This document shows positions 168-46,380 of a stretch of DNA of 64,000 bases, piece by piece (the stretch's first letter is position 1; every line of letters starts with the position of its first letter). The position numbers and the translations under genes are program-made. The DNA comes from Candidatus Latescibacterota bacterium (GTDB lineage Bacteria > Latescibacterota > UBA2968 > GCA-2709665): contig OZ242180.1 of NCBI GenBank assembly GCA_965205485.1, positions 1,920,001 through 1,984,000 of the forward strand, read 5' to 3'. Under the pieces are notes generated by a model. That model did no database searches, was not told where the DNA came from, and saw only the letters and a list, made by a program, of their open reading frames with translations.

Positions 168-900
168 GCAGCTATCAGCGGTCAGTCATCAGCTATCAGC
201 TAAAAGCGAGAGACAAAGTCAAAAGCAAACATTCCTCCCCACCCCGCAGACCTTTCTTCCCGGCCCTCTCAGGAAAAGCTGTCAGCGATCAGCCATCAGC
301 TAAAAGCGAAGGGCAAAGTCAAGAGCAGATCCGCCTCCCAGCCCCGCAGACCTCTCTCCCCGGCCCTCTCTCCTACCAGGAGAGAGGGGGACAAGGCGGG
401 TTTCGCTCTATCAATGCATTTCACGACTGGCGACCGGGGGTATGGGGGGTTTTTCCGTGCTGATCCGTCCAGCGCATTTGCCCTGGAACCGCTGGCAGGC
501 CACACAGAAGATAAAATCATCGCACTCGTTTGTGAAACACCCCGTGGGTTTGCTTCGCAAGCTGTCGCGACCGGGGGTATCCCATTTGCCCTGGAACCGC
601 TGAAGAGTTGGCAGGCCACGCAAGTCCCGTTTACGCCTCTGGAGTGATTCACGGAAAAACCGGCCCCCCGCCGAGGGGCGCGCTTCTTTTTGGTCCTTTT
701 TCTTCCGCGCATAAGAAAAAGGACGTAAAAGAAAGAAAACAAAGGATTTATGAGAAATAGATCTGACATGCAAATGACTTACATGCTGTTTGCCTTTTCA
801 TATGAAATCATGCATTCGGCATACTCCCAAAAAGCTGCGTGGAGATAAGATGTTGGTGGGGAGAGATCCCCTGCCTTGCGAGGTTTCTTATCGCGCCGGC
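168..900 (+). repeat. Composite dispersed repeat, copy A
   Basis: TCAGCNA heptamer run, CCCCGGCCCTCTC module, core GGTTTTTCCGTG(448-459)...CACGGAAAAACC(650-661), GTCCTTTTTCTT/AAGAAAAAGGAC hairpin, AT-rich tail; outer ends approximate. Confidence 0.9.
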
Positions 901-2643: not shown

Positions 2644-3061
2644 CGAAAGCAACCCGTTACTGGAAGCAGAAAACCGGGGCTATCGGCGCGCCGGTTTTTT
2701 TATGCAGAACAGATATCTCCCCCGGCCCCGCAGACCTTTCTCCCCGGCCCTCTCAGAAAGAGCTGTCAGCGATCAGCCGTCAGCCATCAGCAAAAAACGA
2801 AGGGCAAAACCAGTAGCCACCGTTCCCCCTTCCCGTGGGAAGGGGGCTAGGGGGTAGGTCTCGCCCTATCAATGCATTTCACAGCTGGCGACCGGGGGTA
2901 TGGGGGGTTTTTCCGTGCTTTTCCGTCCATCGCATATGTATTGGTACTGCTGAAGTGTTGGCAGGCCACGCGAGTCCCGTTTATGCTTCCGGAGTGATTC
3001 ACGGAAAAACCGGCCCCCTGCCGAAGGGCGCCCTTCTTTTTGGTCCTTTTTCTTCGGCGCA

Positions 3062-4361
3062 TGTATAGACCGGGCAGATAGGTAACACATGTTCGGGCAC
3101 ATGGGTGACAGTTGAAAGTGTTATTGTAGACCTGTAGAAAGGAGGTCTACAATGCCTTGGCCCGAGGTGTCCGCAGTGTCTGCTCGATCAGAGTTCGTTG
3201 ATTTCGCCCATCGTGAAGGCGCCAATGTCAGCAGGTTGTGTGAACGGTATGGCATCAGCCGCAAGACGGGATACAAGTGGCTGTCCCGCTATAAACAGGA
3301 CGCGTGTTGTGACTTCGAGGACCGCAGCAGGTGTCCTGGAACGATTCCGCACCGCACGTCGAAAGCGGTCGAAGATAAAATCATCGCACTGCGAGATAAA
3401 CACCCGGCGTGGGGTGCTCGCAAGCTGTCGCGACGGTTGAAGGATCTGGGAGAACGGGAGGTGCCGGCGTTAAGCACCATTACACAGATCCTGCGTCGCC
3501 GCGGCCGGCTATCTCCGGAACCGTGTCCAGAGCGTCAACCGTGGCAGCGCTTTGAGCATCCCGTACCGAATGCGCTGTGGCAGATGGACTTCAAGGGGCA
3601 CTTCCCGTTGCGGCGCGGGGCCTGCCATCCGCTGACGGTGCTGGATGACCACTCGCGGTTCTCCGTGGGGTTGGTGGCCTGCCCCAATCAGAGAGGCGAC
3701 ACGGTTCAACCCGCCCTCACACAGATCTTCAGGACCTATGGGCTGCCCGACAAGATCCTGAGCGACAATGGCGCGCCGTGGTGGGGTACAAAAGGCGGTA
3801 CCGTCTCGCGTATCTCGATCTGGCTGATCCGCCTGGGCATCCGCCTGACACGCTGTCGTCCGTATCACCCGCAGACCCAGGGCAAGGAGGAACGCTTTCA
3901 CCGCACGTTGAACGCGGAGGTGATCGCCTATCGCGCCTGGTCCACGTTGCCCCAGTGCCAGGACGCGTTCGACCACTGGCGCGACGTCTACAACTTCGAG
4001 CGTCCCCACGAAGCGCTGGACCTCGAGGTGCCCTCCACCCGCTATGAACCCTCTCACCGTGCGTTCCCTGATGCGTTGCCGCCGATCGAATACGGCCCTG
4101 GCGACCACGTGCGGAAGGTGGGCGCGAACGGCTACTTCCGCTATCAAGGACACAGCCTTCGTGTCAGCAACGCCCTGAGGGGCCTGCACGTAGCGGTACG
4201 GCCTACAACCAAAGATGGATGCGTCGACGTCTTCTTCTGTAACCACCGCGTCGGTGCGTTCGACCTTCGGGAATATGATGACACATAAATTGCTGCACAA
4301 CACATCAAAAAGTGTTACCTATGTACCCGAACACCTGTTACCCATGTACCCGGTCCGTACA
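3062..4361 (+). mobile_element. IS481-family insertion sequence, 1300 bp
   Basis: TGT...ACA ends, about 51-bp imperfect terminal IRs, 6-bp target duplication GGCGCA at 3056-3061 and 4362-4367. Confidence 0.95.
3152..4288 (+). CDS. IS481 family DDE transposase
   Basis: N-terminal HTH (GISRKTGYKWLSRY), LWQMDFKG, LSDNG, HPQTQGKEERFHRTL, YNFERPHEAL. Confidence 0.96.
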   Translation: MPWPEVSAVSARSEFVDFAHREGANVSRLCERYGISRKTGYKWLSRYKQDACCDFEDRSRCPGTIPHRTSKAVEDKIIALRDKHPAWGARKLSRRLKDLGEREVPALSTITQILRRRGRLSPEPCPERQPWQRFEHPVPNALWQMDFKGHFPLRRGACHPLTVLDDHSRFSVGLVACPNQRGDTVQPALTQIFRTYGLPDKILSDNGAPWWGTKGGTVSRISIWLIRLGIRLTRCRPYHPQTQGKEERFHRTLNAEVIAYRAWSTLPQCQDAFDHWRDVYNFERPHEALDLEVPSTRYEPSHRAFPDALPPIEYGPGDHVRKVGANGYFRYQGHSLRVSNALRGLHVAVRPTTKDGCVDVFFCNHRVGAFDLREYDDT

Positions 4362-4694
4362 GGCGCATAAGAAAAAGGACGTAAAAGAAGAAAAAAAAAG
4401 GATTTATAAGAAAGAGATCCGGCATGCAAATGGCATATGTGTAGTCTGCCTTTCTATAAAGAATCATGCTATTCGGAAGAACAAATCGGCACGGATTTCT
4501 TCTCCCGTCTTGCGTCCACCGCCTGCCCGATTCTCCGGAACGAACTCATCCCATATTCGTTAAAGAGATTGGCGGGTAAATGTCGTCCCCGCTTTTTCTA
4601 AAGGGAAAGACACCGAGGATCCCGGGTCCCCCCTTCCTTCAGGAAGGGGGTCAGGGGGTAGGTCCTTGGGAGAAAGGGTAAACAGGAGAACCAT

Positions 4695-23033: not shown

Positions 23034-24755
23034 GTGAGTCCCATTAACGGCCCGAACGAAGGATCTCGCCAGCGAAAGTCGCCGGATGACTTTCTGCAGG
23101 ACTACGTGGATATGCAGCACACGTTCCGGTCCCTGTCAATTATCGACCAGATACTGATGTCGATGGACGAGAAGGACAAGCGGCGTCCCCTGCTCTACCA
23201 TCTCCGCCGGCAGCTTCAGGAAGACGAGATCACATTCGAGGAGGCCAGGCGGACCATCGTGGAGATGGAGACCGCGCTTGAGAAGGTGACGGCGCCGGCC
23301 AACCGGGTGGGTACGCTTCTGGAACCCCCCCGTGACGGCGTGGCATACATCAGTGTGGGCGGCTCGGAATATTATGCCAACGTCGATTCGCGGCTGGAAC
23401 AGGAGGCGCTGAAGGTGGGCACGCGGGTGCTCGTCAACGATGCGTTCGCCATCGTCGGCGATCTGGGCTTTTCGAGTTCCGGCCAGGTCGCGAAGATATC
23501 CGACGTGCTGGAAGACGGCCGGTTGCGGGTCGGACAGGAGCCGGGCGGCCAGGTCACGGTGCTGTCGCGGTCGAGCGACCTCGTGAAGGCGTCCCTGAAA
23601 GCGGGCGACGAGGTTCGCGTGGACCCGAATTTCCGGGTGGCGCTGGAACGCATGCCCGAAAAAGAGGCGAAAGACTACTTCCTCGAAGAGATTCCGAATC
23701 TGCCATGGGAAAAGATCGGCGGCCAGGAAGAGGCCATCCAGGCCATCAAGGATACCATCGAAATGCCGGCGTTGCATCCGGACCTGTTCTCAAGGTTCCA
23801 GTACAGCGTTCCCAAGGGCTTCCTGCTCTACGGCCCGCCGGGCTGCGGCAAGACGCTCATCGGCAAGGCGACCGCCTATAACCTCGTCAAGCAGGCGCAG
23901 CAGGAGGCCGGTCTGAACCTGAAGGAATGTTTCATGAACGTCAAAGGACCGGAAATCCTCAATATGTGGGTGGGCGAGTCCGAGCGCCAGGTCCGGGAGA
24001 TCTTCTCCAGGGCGCGTGAGAAGCGCAAGGAGGGGTACCTGCCCGTAGTGTTTATCGACGAGGCGGAATCGGTCCTCGGCACGCGCCGGGCCATGCGGTC
24101 GCACAGCATTTCGAATACGGTCGTGCCGATGTTCTGTTCGGAGATGGACGGCATCGAGTCGCTGCAGGACGTGGTGATCATACTGGCGTCCAACCGCCCC
24201 GACCTGATCGACCCCGCGATCTTGCGGCCGGGAAGGATCGACCGGAAAATCAAGGTAAGGCGTCCCGACCGGTATGGCGCGCTCGACATCCTCAAGATCT
24301 ATCTGACGCCCAATCTCCCGATCGACCGGAAGACGATGGAAGAACACGGCGGAGACAGCGCCGCGGCCGTGGAGACGCTCGTGGGGCGCACGGCGGAAGA
24401 GATCTTCTCAAAGCGGGACCATTCGATATTTCTAGAGGTGACCCTCCGAAGCGGCCGGAAGGACGTCCTCCGACGGGGGGACCTGGCCAGCGGCGCGATC
24501 ATGGAATCCATTGTAAGGCGGGCAAAGGAGATGGCCATCCGCCGGTCCATCGCGTCGGGGCACGAAGAGGGAATATCCCAGGAAGACCTGCTCCAGGCGG
24601 TAGAGACCGAATACACGGAGAACGAGATCTTCCCGCCAACCGATAACACGGAGGACTGGCTCAAACTCCTGGATTACGATCCCGAAAACGTCGTGCGCGC
24701 TTCGCCCGTTCGCCCTGGACGCGAGACCAACCGCCGGGGTCATAGGATCGTATAA
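23034..24755 (+). CDS. arc: Proteasome-associated AAA ATPase (ARC/Mpa-like)
   Basis: N-terminal coiled coil, LLYGPPGCGKT, NVKGPEILNMWVGESERQVR, FIDEAE, NRPDLIDPAILRPGR; SGAIMESIVRRAK. Confidence 0.93.
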   Translation: MSPINGPNEGSRQRKSPDDFLQDYVDMQHTFRSLSIIDQILMSMDEKDKRRPLLYHLRRQLQEDEITFEEARRTIVEMETALEKVTAPANRVGTLLEPPRDGVAYISVGGSEYYANVDSRLEQEALKVGTRVLVNDAFAIVGDLGFSSSGQVAKISDVLEDGRLRVGQEPGGQVTVLSRSSDLVKASLKAGDEVRVDPNFRVALERMPEKEAKDYFLEEIPNLPWEKIGGQEEAIQAIKDTIEMPALHPDLFSRFQYSVPKGFLLYGPPGCGKTLIGKATAYNLVKQAQQEAGLNLKECFMNVKGPEILNMWVGESERQVREIFSRAREKRKEGYLPVVFIDEAESVLGTRRAMRSHSISNTVVPMFCSEMDGIESLQDVVIILASNRPDLIDPAILRPGRIDRKIKVRRPDRYGALDILKIYLTPNLPIDRKTMEEHGGDSAAAVETLVGRTAEEIFSKRDHSIFLEVTLRSGRKDVLRRGDLASGAIMESIVRRAKEMAIRRSIASGHEEGISQEDLLQAVETEYTENEIFPPTDNTEDWLKLLDYDPENVVRASPVRPGRETNRRGHRIV

Positions 24756-24759
24756 AAAC

Positions 24760-25450
24760 CGCACCTCTCCCCCTGGCCCCTCAGAAAGAGCTGTCAGCTA
24801 TCAGCCATCAGCAGTCAGCCAAAAGCAGTTTCTATCAAGGACAAGCGTAAGGAATCACCAAAATTCCCACCGCCACGAGGGCGACCACAAGGGTTGCACC
24901 TACAAATTCAACACCAGCGAGTCCGGTGGTGGAGAGGGTCCTCGGTGCTCTACAATACAGCACCTCTATCGGAACGAATCTCGCCGGATCCTTTCATGCG
25001 CCCGGTTGTGGAGTGAGGGGTTTTTCCGTGTTAATCCGTCCAGCGTTATTTATCCGTCCAGCCCTTTAGCGTTGGTACTGTTGTGGTGCTCGCAGGCCAC
25101 CTGAGTCCCATTTATGCCTCTGAGGGAATTCACGGAAAAACCGGCCCCCTGCCGAAGGGCGCGCTTCTTTTTGGTCCTTTTTCTTACGCGCATAAGAAAA
25201 AGGACGTAAATAAAATAAAAATAATGATTTGATTTTAAAATAGCGACCTGTATTAAGCAAACCTATCTATTGTCTTTCTTTTCAAAATCATGCCTACGGC
25301 GTGTTCCTTAGAACCGCGAAGACGTGAGACGGAAGAGGGGAGAGATTGCCTGCCTTGCGAGGATTCGTTTCGTGCTGAAGGCAAGAAGGAAAAACATAGC
25401 GGGCAAGGATTTCATCTACCGTCTACCCACTTACCTCTACCCGCCTTTTG
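24760..25450 (+). repeat. Composite dispersed repeat, copy C
   Basis: Core IR 25019-25030 / 25131-25142, hairpins, AT-rich tail and AGACGTGAGACG module. Confidence 0.88.
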
Positions 25451-25873
25451 GCGACCTCTCTCCCCGGCCCTCTCTCCTAAAGGAAACGGGAGCAAGACTG
25501 GAAGACCATCCTCACACAAAGACACGAAGGCACAAAGGGACACAAAGGGAAACCGGAGAAAGCAAAGGGCAAAGTCAAAGGCAACCCATCCGCCCGGCCC
25601 CGCAGACCTCTCTCCCCGACCCTCTCTCCTAAGGGAAAGAGGGAGAAAAGGCGGGTTTCGCTCTATCAATGTATTTCACAACTGGCGACTGGGGGTATGG
25701 GGGGTTTTTCCGTGCTGATCCGTCCAGCGCATTCGCATTGTTACATCAGAAGGATTGGTAGGCCACACAAGTCCTGTTTACGCCTCCGGAGTGATTCACG
25801 GAAAAACCGGCCCCCCGCCGAGGGGCGCCCTTCTTTTTCGCCCTTTTTCTTGGGCGCAGCAAGAAAAAGGGCA
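25451..25873 (+). repeat. Composite dispersed repeat, copy D (3'-truncated)
   Basis: Core IR 25703-25714 / 25797-25808; hairpin variant GCCCTTTTTCTTG...CAAGAAAAAGGGC. Confidence 0.88.
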
Positions 25874-25987
25874 AGGGAATAGGGGACGTTTGGGGGAAGG
25901 GAAGACTCCCAATCGCTCCGAGAAAAATTACCGGCGTCCCATATCGCCTTTACCCAACATACAACATGAGATACTGAGACAAGGTCT

Positions 25988-27508
25988 ATGAATCGACTCT
26001 TCGGCCTTGAAACGGAGTACGGGATCACGATCGACGGCGTGGACAGGATCGACGTGGTGGAGGAGTCGATGCAGCTGATCCGGTGCTACCTCAGAGGCGA
26101 GTTTACGCCACTCTGGGACTACCAACTGGAGAACCCCCGCAAGGACGTGCGGGGATTTGAAGTGAAATCGCTGTTGAACGATACCGACGAAAAGGTCCAT
26201 CTTCAGAAAGACCGCCAGCGAAAGGTGCCGCTCGAGGAGTTGAAGAGCGACCTGATCATCCGCAACGGCGCCCGTTTCTACAATGACCATACGCACCCTG
26301 AATACGCCACGGGGGAGTGTCTCAGCCTCTTCGAGCTGGTGGCGCAGGACCGCGCGGGCGAGCGGATCGTGGATATGTGCGCGCGGCGGCGGACGGAGAT
26401 GCTGCCCGAGGGCGCCGTGCGGATCTACAAGAACAATACGGACTTCGAAGGCCACAGCTACGGGTGTCACGAGAATTACCTGATGGACCGCGGGACGCCG
26501 TTCGACCGGATCGTGAAGGGGCTGCTTCCCTTCCTGGTGACGCGGCAGATTTACGCGGGCGCGGGCAAGATGGGCGTGGAACGCGGCGACAGGGCGCCCA
26601 TCTATCAGCTCTCGCAGCGGTCCGAGTTCTTCGAGGTGATCGCCAGCGTCGACACCATGCACAAGCGCCCGCTCATCAACACACGCGACGAACCGCACGC
26701 GGACGCCGGAAGGTACCGCAGACTCCACGTGATCCTGGGCGACGCGAATATGTCCGAGTACGTCACGGCGCTGAAGGTCGGCGCCACCGCGCTTGTGGTC
26801 GCGCTGGTTGAACAGGACGATCTGCCCGACGTGGTCCTTAAGGATCCCGTTGCGGCGCTGAAGGACGTGTCGCGCGACCAGAGTTATCAGTGGCTGGTGG
26901 AGCTGGATCGCAAGACCGGCCGCCTGATACCGGCCGTTGAGGTGCAGCGGATGTACCTGGGGCTGGCGAAGGAGCGGTTCGGCGGCCGGGACGTGGAAAC
27001 GGACTGGGTGCTCAACGCCTGGGACGAGATGCTGCACGGCCTCGAACGGGACCCGATGGCGATGGTGGGCGCCTGCGACTGGGTCAGCAAAAAGTGGCTG
27101 CTGGACTGTTTTCGCGAAGCGGAAGGGCTTTCCTGGGACAATCCGGACGACCTGGCCTGGCTCCAGAGCCAGGATCTGGAATACCACAACGTGGACCCGG
27201 AGGCCGGGCTGTATTTTCTGCTGGAGGAGCAGGGCAAGATGGTCCGCCTTATTGATGACGAACGGATCGAGGAAGCGATGTCCGTTCCGCCTGCCGACAC
27301 GCGCGCCTGGTTCCGTGGGCGATGCCTGGAGAAATTCGGCCACGACGTCAAATCGGTCAACTGGGACCGGATCGTCTTCCTCCGGAACGGCGAACAGCGT
27401 TCGGTGGATATGAAGGATCTGGTTGATGGGGAGAAGGTCGCGTATTATAATAGGGCGTTGGATCGCTCGGATGAACTGGAGGAATTCCTGAACGCGCTTG
27501 AGGTCTGA
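25988..27508 (+). CDS. dop: Depupylase/deamidase Dop-like protein
   Basis: RLFGLETEYGI, NGARFYNDHTHPEY, YKNNTD..GHSYGCHENYL, RPLINTRDEPHAD..YRRLHVILGDANMSE. Confidence 0.9.
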   Translation: MNRLFGLETEYGITIDGVDRIDVVEESMQLIRCYLRGEFTPLWDYQLENPRKDVRGFEVKSLLNDTDEKVHLQKDRQRKVPLEELKSDLIIRNGARFYNDHTHPEYATGECLSLFELVAQDRAGERIVDMCARRRTEMLPEGAVRIYKNNTDFEGHSYGCHENYLMDRGTPFDRIVKGLLPFLVTRQIYAGAGKMGVERGDRAPIYQLSQRSEFFEVIASVDTMHKRPLINTRDEPHADAGRYRRLHVILGDANMSEYVTALKVGATALVVALVEQDDLPDVVLKDPVAALKDVSRDQSYQWLVELDRKTGRLIPAVEVQRMYLGLAKERFGGRDVETDWVLNAWDEMLHGLERDPMAMVGACDWVSKKWLLDCFREAEGLSWDNPDDLAWLQSQDLEYHNVDPEAGLYFLLEEQGKMVRLIDDERIEEAMSVPPADTRAWFRGRCLEKFGHDVKSVNWDRIVFLRNGEQRSVDMKDLVDGEKVAYYNRALDRSDELEEFLNALEV

Positions 27509-32043: not shown

Positions 32044-32610
32044 AAAAAGCTATCAGCGATCAGCCGTCAGCTAAAAACGAAAGGCAAATTCAAAAGCAAC
32101 CTCTCTCCCCGGCCCTCTCTCCTAAAGGAAAGAGGGAGCACGGCCAGGGTCTCGCGCCATAGCAGATTTTTCCGTTCGAGCGACCGGGGGTATGGGGGGT
32201 TTTTCCGTGTTAATCCGTTCCGCACCGATGTCTTGGCACACGTCAGGGGGTCGCAGGCCACCGAGTTGCATTCGTGCCTCTGAGGCGGTTCACGGAAAAA
32301 CCGGCCCCCCGCCGAGGGGCGCGGTTCTTTTTGGTCCTTTTTCTTACGCGGATAAGAAAAAGGACGTAAAAAATTGAAAAATAAGAAGTTATCATAAAAG
32401 AGCCGACTTGCAAATGACAAATCCTCTTTTGCCTTTCTGTTCAAAATCGTTCCTACCGCGTGTTCCTCAAGAACGGGAAGACGTGAGACGGAAGAGGGTA
32501 GAGATCGCCTGCCGTGTAATGTTTCTTCTCATGCCGCAGGCAAGTCGGAGGAACAAATCGGCAAGGGTTTCTTCTACCGTCTCGCCTCTACCGTCTAACC
32601 GCTTCTTCCC
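32044..32610 (+). repeat. Composite dispersed repeat, copy E
   Basis: Core IR 32198-32209 / 32291-32302 plus flanking modules. Confidence 0.9.
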
Positions 32611-43582: not shown

Positions 43583-44348
43583 AAGGAGCTGTCAGCTATC
43601 AGCCGTCAGCTGTCAGCAGAAGCGAAACACGAAAGGCAAAGATCAAGAAGCAACCCCTCCACCCAGCTCGGCAGACCTCTCTCCCCGGCCCTCTCTCCCA
43701 CCGGGAGAGAGGGAGGATAAACAGGTTTCGCGTGCCGGTCAACTCTAGACACATTGATCGAAAGGCAATCGCCATCCCGGCACTTCGCAAAACCTGCACA
43801 ACCACCCATCACCGTTCCCCCTTCCTCTCAGGAAGGGGGTTAAGGGGTAGGTCTCGCCCCATCAATGTATTTCACGTCTGGCGACCGGGGGTATGGGGGG
43901 TTTTTCCGTGCTGATCCGTCCAGCGCATTTGCACTGGCACTGCTGAAGGGTTCGTAGGCCACACAAATCCCGTTTATGCCTCCGGAGTGATTCACGGAAA
44001 AACCGGCCCCCTGCCGAAGGGCGCGCTTCTTTTTGGTCCTTTTTCTTCCGCGCATAAGAAAAAGGACGTAAAAAAAAGAAAAATAATGATTTAATTAAAG
44101 AAAATGGGATCTGTCAGTCACAAAAACCATCATTTGTCTTTTTGTCAAATTATGCCTACGGCGTGTTCCTTAAATGCGGGGAGACGTAAGCCGGGAGACG
44201 TTAGAGATTTCCTGCCTTGAGAGGTTTCTTATTGTGCCGGAGGCAAAACGGAAAAAATGTCGGGCATATATGTCTTCTAACGTCTCACCTCTCCCGTCTA
44301 ACCGCATTTCATCTACCGTCTACCGTCTTCCCTCTCCCCGCCTTTAGG
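43583..44348 (+). repeat. Composite dispersed repeat, copy F (most complete)
   Basis: All modules present; core IR 43899-43910 / 43993-44004. Confidence 0.9.
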
Positions 44349-45739: not shown

Positions 45740-46380
45740 GTGATCAGCTGTCAGCCATCAGCTAAAACCAAAGGCGAGAATCAAAGGCAGCTTAAGGCAA
45801 GAACGAAAAGCAAAGTCAAAAGCGACGTCTCCCCACCGCCCCGCAGACCTCTCTCCCCGGCCCTCTCTCCCAAGTGAGAGAGGGAGCAAGGCGAGGTCTC
45901 GCCCTATCAATGCATTTCACAACCGGCGACGGGGGGTACGGGGGGTTTTTCCGTGTTCGTCCGTCCCGCGCATTTGCACTGAAACTGCTGAAGGGTTGGC
46001 AGGCCGCCGGGTTGCATTGGTTCCTTTGAGGTGATTCACGGAAAAACCGGCTCCCCGCCGAGGGGCGCGGTCTTTTTGGTCCTTTTTCTTACGCGTATAA
46101 GAAAAAGGACGTAAAAAAAAGAAAAATAATGATTTATTTCAAAAAATAGAGTCATGCACCAAGCAAAATCCGGCGTTTGCTTTTTTGTTCAAAGTCATGC
46201 CTGCGGCGTGTTTCTTGAAACCGGGAAGACGTGAGACGAAAGAGAGTAGAGATCGCATGCCGTGTAAGGATTCTTCTCATACCGCAGGCTAGTCGGAGGA
46301 ACCTATTGGCAAGGGCTTCTTCTCCCGGCTAACCTCTCCAGGTCTCCCCTCCATTTCTTCTCCCGTCTCCCCGCCTTTAA
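45740..46380 (+). repeat. Composite dispersed repeat, copy G
   Basis: Core IR 45944-45955 / 46037-46048 plus flanking modules. Confidence 0.9.

Follow-up and report, generated by a model that had tools for sequence, protein, structure and literature searches.

The closest described counterpart of the element reported here is the extended TwoAYGGAY motif of Pseudomonadota, which, in the accessible parts of its sources (RF01731; PMC2864571; bioRxiv 10.64898/2026.09.22.753630), combines a basal stem, extra hairpins and a 3' pseudoknot, is preceded on its 5' side by short repeats, and occurs in divergent doublets. The main text of the preprint gives 68% of the doublets as divergent, with a median of 249 bp, presents the extension as largely confined to Pseudomonadota and mentions no triplex. 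REPINs (PMC3337134) and REP dimers (PMC3733652) are described, in the available portions of these papers, as carrying unique spacers of set length, while TMECO is a ~37-nt G/C-rich motif for which the accessible text describes no pseudoknot (Holder 2015, PMC4666352). Finally, the ncRNAs of UG27 reverse transcriptases (RTs) consist of structure-conserved, sequence-diverse pseudoknot units of ~150 nt that template cDNA (main text of 10.64898/2026.09.22.753630). A survey of the open literature (subscription papers and preprint supplements lay outside it) on tail motifs, on repeats joining a pseudoknot to a triple helix and on Latescibacterota repeats found no description of an element such as ours, nor is one described in the accessible portions of PMC2267715, PMC11893778 and PMC2864571. 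The element appears to be an undescribed variant in a class of structured repeats that is known but has yet to be explained.

The element is ~190 bases long and is dispersed in dozens of copies in sponge-symbiont bacteria. Seven copies lie in the window, by which we mean the whole 64,000-nt stretch analysed here (contig OZ242180.1 of a Candidatus Latescibacterota bacterium, positions 1,920,001 to 1,984,000):

428 to 727, + strand: copy A, the ~190-nt element enlarged by a 108-nt insert
2886 to 3061, + strand: copy B, with an 82-nt loop (2918 to 2999); its terminal hairpin is split by an IS481 element, the remainder lying at 4362 to 4381
24999 to 25208, + strand: copy C, with a 100-nt loop that includes an imperfect 18-nt tandem duplication (25031 to 25066)
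25683 to 25875, + strand: copy D, with an 82-nt loop (25715 to 25796)
32178 to 32368, + strand: copy E, with an 81-nt loop (32210 to 32290)
43879 to 44070, + strand: copy F, with an 82-nt loop (43911 to 43992)
45924 to 46113, + strand: copy G, with an 81-nt loop (45956 to 46036)

An earlier reading of the letters alone (the sequence-only reading) had noted seven perfect 12-bp inverted pairs around segments of nearly fixed length, and this was borne out: the window holds 14 matches to the 12-mers with no mismatches, where chance predicts 0.51 per window and none of 100 shuffles reached 14, and the enclosed lengths are indeed 190 (A), 82 (B), 100 (C), 82 (D), 81 (E), 82 (F) and 81 nt (G). Equally accurate was its remark that the enclosed loops diverge, with 56–85% identity among the five normal window copies, compared with 83–97% over the 40 nt that follow the right arm in these same copies. 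Copy A, at whose coordinates the original finding was placed, is an aberrant copy. In the closed, 5.13-Mb, 97%-complete genome we found 33 such 12-bp pairs, 31 of which enclose 79–82 nt (82 nt in 22, 81 nt in seven, 80 and 79 nt in one each; the other two enclose 100 and 190 nt), and a profile search added about ten further variant or truncated copies and a second subfamily. No Rfam family matched the window or, at E ≤ 1, five of the loci. Copies C and D are flanked by a proteasomal ATPase gene on one side and a Pup-ligase-family gene on the other (window 23034–27508).

The clamp formed by the repeat had been called invariant and frozen, which proved too strong: its inner three pairs vary on both sides among 105 distinct copies from relatives (GTG/CAC in 61, ACG/CGT in 21, GCG/CGC in 10, GTG/CGC in 6, others in 7), and variants occur in this genome as well. 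Moreover, the element outlasts the repeat, with ~65 conserved nt on the 3' side of the right arm and looser homology on the 5' side of the left arm. The repeat is the covarying basal stem of a polar element of ~190 nt, and not the boundary of that element. Read 5' to 3', the element consists of the stem, an unstructured loop with two fixed anchors, a small hairpin and an H-type pseudoknot, of which stem and small hairpin are placed in copy A as follows:

446 to 459, + strand: 5' arm of the basal stem, made up of the 12-bp arm (448 to 459) and a 2-bp extension that pairs with 664 to 665 across a 2-nt bulge
650 to 665, + strand: 3' arm of the basal stem
666 to 678, + strand: small 4-bp hairpin with a conserved five-base loop and two covarying pairs

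In an alignment of 45 copies, the 22 named pairs of stem, hairpin and pseudoknot are paired in 99.6% of 986 cells, with 79 double changes; none of 500 shuffles scored as high, and controls with the pairing slid along gave 40–56%. The top covarying Watson–Crick-consistent pairs (at least 91% paired, non-adjacent) all fall within the named helices and none in the loop, in tests that ignore kinship among copies (no tree correction). In other genera and in a second family, entirely different arm sequences surround the same loop, and pairing is kept. Where stem pairs depart from Watson–Crick, G-T (17) is commoner than A-C (4; other departures 13), and 24 copies from distant families show seven G-T and no A-C; this bias identifies the + strand as the folding strand. 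In several relatives (L018, L021, L035, L051, L083, L458 and others) a GC-rich palindromic repeat is inserted between the small hairpin and the pseudoknot strand, always at the same position. At genome site C1:1649625–1649828 the left arm contains a copied 17–18-nt piece from the 3' end of the loop, which points to template switching across the stem.

The 3' end of the element is laid out in copy A as:

679 to 724, + strand: H-type pseudoknot tail, in which 679 to 682 pairs with 706 to 709 inside the loop of the terminal hairpin
693 to 704 with 713 to 724, + strand: terminal hairpin
684 to 691, + strand: pyrimidine tract, the predicted third strand

A loose pattern for the T-rich end matched at least 120 metagenome loci, on contigs labelled human gut and many other projects, and in these tails the terminal-hairpin loop is complementary to the bases that immediately precede the first pyrimidine tract. 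Among 98 of them the complementary run averages 4.1, against 2.9 when permuted (0 of 500 permutations as high; 240 of 500 for a shifted control), and among 48 tail types of the element itself it averages 4.46 against 3.87, including single-copy compensatory changes. Covariation also links the pyrimidine tract, as a parallel third strand, to the purine strand, and an extended third strand accompanies 14 of 16 tail types with an extended duplex as against 5 of 69 others, counts in which kinship is ignored. From these sequence patterns, the tail is an H-type pseudoknot with a probable triple helix. Telomerase RNA and the SAM-II riboswitch likewise contain H-type pseudoknots with a U-rich loop 1 and major-groove triples; our tail has their topology and the same T-A-T/C-G-C third-strand register, a likeness in fold only. 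A similar T-rich/A-rich hairpin occurs in an intergenic region of small viral contigs (4–6 kb; L294–L297), by eye without the pseudoknot complement.

The sequence-only reading had offered a plain double-stranded protein-binding or recombination site as one explanation of its fixed spacing, and here the polarity of G-T over A-C and the covariation of the pseudoknot point instead to one folded strand. A site in double-stranded DNA, whose arms or anchors bind protein or recombine and whose spacing is set by DNA geometry as in BIMEs or REPINs, would suit the rigid 41-nt spacing of the anchors (see below), the lodging of copies in mosaic intergenic repeat clusters that turn over, and the precedent of REP dimers with spacers similar in length and different in sequence (accessible text of PMC3733652). 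We nonetheless regard it as quite unlikely, since the arms change wholly between families while their pairing is kept, the pseudoknot, third strand and G-T polarity require a single strand, an 81/82 length polymorphism and anchor spacings of 39–41 nt are tolerated, and loop conservation shows no helical periodicity (1833 of 2000 permutations as high).

Like REPINs and REP dimers, the element has conserved inverted ends and a copy-specific spacer of set length, is intergenic, serves as a target for insertion sequences and lies in mosaic clusters; it differs in having no REP palindromes with a GTAG/CGTC tag, arms that are non-palindromic stem halves changing between families, a loop that does not fold where the REPIN spacer forms a hairpin, polarity, a pseudoknot tail, and no cognate RAYT flanked by the element. 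With BoxC/PIT/TMECO repeats it shares a triplex-capable arrangement of three blocks (pyrimidine, pyrimidine, purine), an intergenic position, variable surroundings and frequent inverted pairs of two types, but here an A/T-rich tail, locked by a pseudoknot helix that covaries, forms the end of a 190-nt element. Two other kinds of repeat lie upstream of copy A:

171 to 300, + strand: two short TCAGC-type heptamer arrays (171 to 200 and 278 to 300), oriented as is typical upstream of the element
351 to 390, + strand: G/C-rich three-block motif with a layout like that of the TMECO/BoxC triplex

The TMECO-like motif is a separate repeat family with 18 matches in the genome, 7 of them upstream of an element at a distance of no more than 300 nt. 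The TCAGC heptamer array is found upstream of the element in sense orientation at 23 of 43 copies and in antisense at none of the 43, with 6 of 3000 at random. Seven TCAGC-array matches surround a four-helix-bundle (PF05635) gene at C1:1728143–1731460, a possible partner of the TCAGC repeat and not of the element. Elsewhere in the window, 2289–2452 is a very high-copy repeat with inverted ends, at which summed contig depth exceeds 100 times that of the flanks and loose ends occur at both borders (three runs).

Within the stem lies the segment on which the original finding centred, in copy A:

460 to 649, + strand: loop of copy A, 82 nt without 475 to 582, with anchors TCCGT and AGGNC and a terminal TT

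The anchors that had been proposed are real, for 134–135 of 135 copies retain the C-C-G of TCCGT, 134–135 the A-G-G and 134 the final TT. Between TCCG and AGG there are 41 nt in 129 of 140 loops (different in four, unscorable in seven), and 39–41 nt in relatives. The alternation of 81 and 82 nt goes back to a single inherited gap near position 57, present in 53 of 135 copies. A pattern built on the stem only recovered 28 distinct copies of the second family from five genomes, all 28 with both anchors and with 77–81 nt between the arms. A conserved fold inside the loop was rejected: fold z-scores of 22 loops average 0.1–0.4 on either strand, as RNA or DNA, with none of the 22 below −2, no Watson–Crick covarying pair falls in the loop, and single-copy folds of copy F gave only unstable pairing there. 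A coding or periodic loop was rejected too, with neither codon nor helical periodicity, and the variable positions are scattered rather than gathered into blocks.

The length of the loop is under constraint, as had been proposed. Counting loops of 80–92 nt (closing triplets included) without copies A and C, which biases the figures low, we scored 28 indels per 1953 substitutions (0.014) in 140 loops, 12 per 488 (0.025) in the 33 loops of this genome and a ratio of 0.022 in 45 loops of the second subfamily, against 109 per 1364 (0.080; 8,470 columns) in orthologous non-repeat intergenic DNA and 0.056 and 0.107 in the element's own flanks. Given the length-filtered count, the true contrast between loop and intergenic DNA is nearer two- to sixfold.

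Fast substitution, in contrast, finds no support. Nearest-copy loop divergence, a measure biased low and based on 2–15 loops per genome, is below the divergence at four-fold sites in seven of ten relatives, equal in one and above in two (loop/four-fold 0.12/0.12, 0.10/0.21, 0.23/0.17, 0.23/0.29, 0.28/0.17, 0.22/0.28, 0.31/0.38, 0.28/0.39, 0.35/0.38 and 0.36/0.38), and transitions to transversions stand at 61:74 in 26 close loop pairs, compared with 26:38 to 50:64 at the four-fold sites of the closest relatives. Loops drift at a neutral rate. Differences between loops of the same length have a median of 33, and one orthologous pair differs at 2 of 82 loop positions (L074) within flanks that are 89–93% identical. 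Variable interiors of fixed length, with low indel ratios, are also found in two unrelated repeat families of this genome. One is a RAYT-type REPIN family of 43 copies whose spacers measure 102–103 nt in 35 (e.g. C1:2516466–2517043); the other, at nine genomic sites including window 25345–25430, has conserved ends and a 44-nt variable interior in seven of the nine. Neutral drift with purged indels and exchange between copies explains the combination of variable letters and fixed length, without hypermutation.

This bears directly on whether the loop could be guide-bearing or hypermutated. Bridge or guide RNA scaffolds hold blocks of variable guide bases that match a target and come with an associated recombinase or nuclease, and diversity-generating retroelements (DGRs) combine a reverse transcriptase, adenine-specific variation and a coding target. 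High diversity of copies inside conserved ends is what either would produce, and a scaffold of conserved structure around a loop of drifting letters, as had been suggested, is indeed present. The guide-like loop suggested along with it fares poorly: the longest exact match of a loop to the masked genome averages 14.5 nt for own loops, 14.3 nt for foreign loops and 14.6 nt for column-resampled loops, copy F had no match in 50,697 phage records and two chance-level matches (E = 0.5) in 72,556 plasmids, and the variable positions do not form blocks. A viral scan with the loop anchors gave matches that, among those listed (at least 120), we judged to be chance. None of 140 loops is inverted relative to the tail, which speaks against loop inversion. 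As for a DGR, no RT was found, adenine-specific mutagenesis is not seen in the substitution spectrum, which is that of the background, and lengths of 81 and 82 would break a reading frame. With rate and spectrum neutral and one orthologous pair all but unchanged, a bridge-RNA-like or DGR-like loop is largely refuted and in our view highly improbable.

Copy A has an enlarged loop:

475 to 602, + strand: private 108-nt insert with a bracketing 20-nt direct repeat (475 to 494 and 583 to 602)

The insert is a mosaic of a piece of loop, a piece of IS481 at 507–571 (like 3371–3434) and 14 nt of 5' flank (567–580 equal to 430–443). The 65-nt IS481 piece consists of two exact blocks, of 20 and 17 nt, around a noisy centre, which slow decay cannot account for because the two IS481 copies are 99.5% identical. 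Orthologous copies (L065, L077, L081) have normal loops, and among the read-derived contigs listed, with 15 of 24 joints shown, none spans copy A. An assembly consensus artefact or a multi-step template switch has about an even chance of being the origin of the insert, which is no evidence of spacer capture.

Comparison with relatives shows that parts of the element change hands between copies. We matched 30 syntenic loci in relatives to 16 element sites of this genome, and most have a different loop, upstream part or tail: at one (L028) the upstream part is near-identical and the loop of another type, at another (L029) the loop is common and the upstream part different. Among 115 pairs with near-identical upstream parts, 48 have left loop halves at least 35% apart. 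Distances of loop halves and tails across 132 copies are nearly uncorrelated (r 0.07–0.10), and linkage along the element weakens as distance grows (2 of 1000 permutations), without any particular break at AGG. At 12 loci where this genome lacks a relative's copy we found no target duplication and no clean empty site; the entire intergenic region had other content or was nearly gone. Homology beyond the repeat on both sides, and no target-site duplication at these 12 loci, also set the element apart from MITEs. We infer that gene conversion and turnover within mosaic repeat clusters are the mechanism. The terminal-hairpin loop is a target for insertion sequences, with IS481 in copy B, one more such site, and other IS-like ends at this loop in this genome and in relatives:

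3062 to 4361, + strand: IS481-family element (transposase 3152 to 4288), inside the terminal-hairpin loop of copy B with a 6-bp duplication

This IS481 is a passenger.

Module swapping of this kind could alternatively be a dedicated process, as it would be if the loop were a template or cassette copied by a trans-acting RT-like enzyme whose cDNA homes to other copies, in the manner of UG27, DRT2 or DGRs. Such copying would accord with the exchange of whole loops at orthologous sites, where the break points fall in the conserved arms, and the UG27 units described above provide a precedent; their narrow unit length, short conserved motifs, pseudoknot and sequence diversity recur here. UG27 units, however, form tandem arrays by an RT operon in prophages and have a hairpin as their variable part, whereas the element is dispersed and its loop unpaired. 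With 11 RT queries, tblastn found no RT in this genome, and of 14 genus relatives with the element, 6 likewise yielded none. One relative (G008; L162, L172) has multi-copy RT genes of 463-aa frames adjoining element copies; they resemble group II intron proteins and are probably group II introns, an identity that rests on copy number and size. Together with a spectrum that is not adenine-specific, and with ordinary recombination between 60–90% identical repeats accounting for the swaps, this makes the cassette reading very unlikely, and gene conversion remains the mechanism that we prefer.

Searches for another driver were likewise negative in this genome: RVT_1, Y1_Tnp and DUF559 had no match, and PF01797 had none beyond weak fragments by tblastn. 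Of 12 Y1/RAYT loci in the family none carries the element, and these loci bear their own repeat; in relatives, RAYT genes are flanked by the RAYT-type REPIN (L157, L158, L159). The lack of a driver is weak evidence, because 43 RAYT-type REPINs persist here without a scored RAYT. Two four-helix-bundle and two GIY-YIG loci were rejected as drivers, having no element at them. Uma2, which occupies the interval between copies A and B and also the orthologous site in relatives, was rejected as well, with the element at only 3 of 30 Uma2 loci and three element-rich genomes without an Uma2 match. No neighbour protein recurs at the 120 metagenome loci listed, where 127 ORFs adjoining the tails fell into small clusters of 2–4 only.

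A covariance model of the element found matches in all 18 genomes of the family, in 27 of the 30 from the sister family and in none of the 64 from a third; overall 60 of 151 genomes matched, some of them probably by the tail alone. The carriers are mostly titled Candidatus Latescibacterota, and some Gemmatimonadota or uncultured bacterium; sponge or marine metagenome is the label of several sequencing runs in which part of the stretch occurs. Neighbouring copies within 2 kb in this genome (14 pairs) are divergent in 11 cases, convergent in two and tandem in one, the divergent gaps measuring 121–295 nt, and divergent doublets are always heterodimers of the two subfamilies. A replichore bias was rejected as not robust (32–33 of 43 by GC-skew turning points, 28 of 43 with the origin at dnaA, by hand count).

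Relative to genes, as located by simple gene calls, 18 copies are sense and 12 antisense between co-directional neighbours, eight lie between divergent and five between convergent genes, which equals the intergenic baseline. This independence speaks against the element being a terminator or riboswitch. An intrinsic terminator acting in cis, or a stabiliser of mRNA ends, placed behind genes would explain a GC hairpin followed by a T-rich run, and terminator-like matches are enriched around copies F and G (13 against 3.8); given also that the T-run covaries as a third strand, we find this reading scarcely credible.

A transcribed, multi-copy regulatory RNA with a host function, for example a protein sponge as proposed for TwoAYGGAY and Csr/Rsm, and not mainly mobile, has more to recommend it. 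Two families of the order have kept the architecture and the anchors, G-T wobbles are tolerated, the divergent heterodimer doublets could have a common central promoter region, the part of the genome within 1 Mb of dnaA (39% of it) contains 45 of 60 copies, and in 33 of 43 copies the opposite strand of the TCCGT anchor reads AYGGAY. On the folded strand, however, AYGGAY occurs in only 1 of 43, and CsrA was found in one of five genomes searched, which is not this one. A crude scan found no promoter-like site pointing into copies F or G, and one RNA run with a small share yielded three contigs, none over a loop (weak evidence). Copy number and sites turn over between species. We consider a regulatory RNA to be unlikely.

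The element and TwoAYGGAY share a basal stem, an extra hairpin, a 3' pseudoknot, dispersed intergenic copies, divergent doublets and polar short repeats upstream, and the tail motif is found ~40–70 nt downstream of three RF01731 matches, in the same orientation (L311, L331, L391), the RF01731 model matching at 3 of 20 metagenome loci. RF01731 matched nothing in the window, in the five loci at E ≤ 1 or in the genome, in a genome run whose 14 control genomes were also blank. TwoAYGGAY has two AYGGAY hairpins where the element has one unstructured loop of fixed length, ~80 nt; the doublets here are heterodimers, and the upstream repeat is the TCAGC heptamer. Six 5-mers of the GMTBT type found in the TwoAYGGAY 5' array occur upstream of the element at 2.02 against 1.59 at random, with no strand bias. 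The element works like extended TwoAYGGAY and has a module in common with it, but is not a member, because the defining AYGGAY hairpins are absent.

The explanation that we favour, with somewhat better than even confidence, is a dispersed, non-autonomous element that acts as one folded strand, with the loop as a length-kept linker, rare copying in trans and gene conversion between paralogous copies. Its working form would be a single folded strand, either RNA or transiently single-stranded DNA, in which the 12-bp repeat forms the basal stem and the small hairpin and the pseudoknot with its pyrimidine third strand form the 3' end. The ~80-nt loop would be an unstructured linker that fixes the distances of the two invariant motifs to each other and to the stem, a spacing that most likely serves a bound protein or a tertiary contact. 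Copies would be old and vertically inherited, with selection acting on anchors, pairing and length and the other letters left free, and gene conversion between paralogous copies would rewrite loops in place. Rare new copies might arise through a putative factor acting in trans, which would recognise the folded strand much as RAYT recognises REPINs. Mobility is a proposal only, because no driver, recurrent neighbour, clean empty site or target duplication was found.

A bolder possibility, which we consider quite unlikely, is that the element is the RNA or single-stranded DNA substrate of an undiscovered, widespread copying system, whose trans enzyme docks on the tail and for which the length-locked loop is an exchangeable template cassette to be written into other copies. 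If true, one tail would serve several phyla and be joined in them to different 'heads': two AYGGAY hairpins, rods, or the 80-nt loop found here. Leaving that system aside, the folded-strand element that we favour addresses an open question, namely the dispersed structured repeats of bacteria that have no known mover or job. It links a Latescibacterota element to the orphan TwoAYGGAY through a common pseudoknot tail with third-strand evidence, which suggests that both belong to a single superfamily, its 3' module being common and its heads differing between lineages, and it offers short, testable substrates with two invariant anchors, a fixed distance and a triplex.
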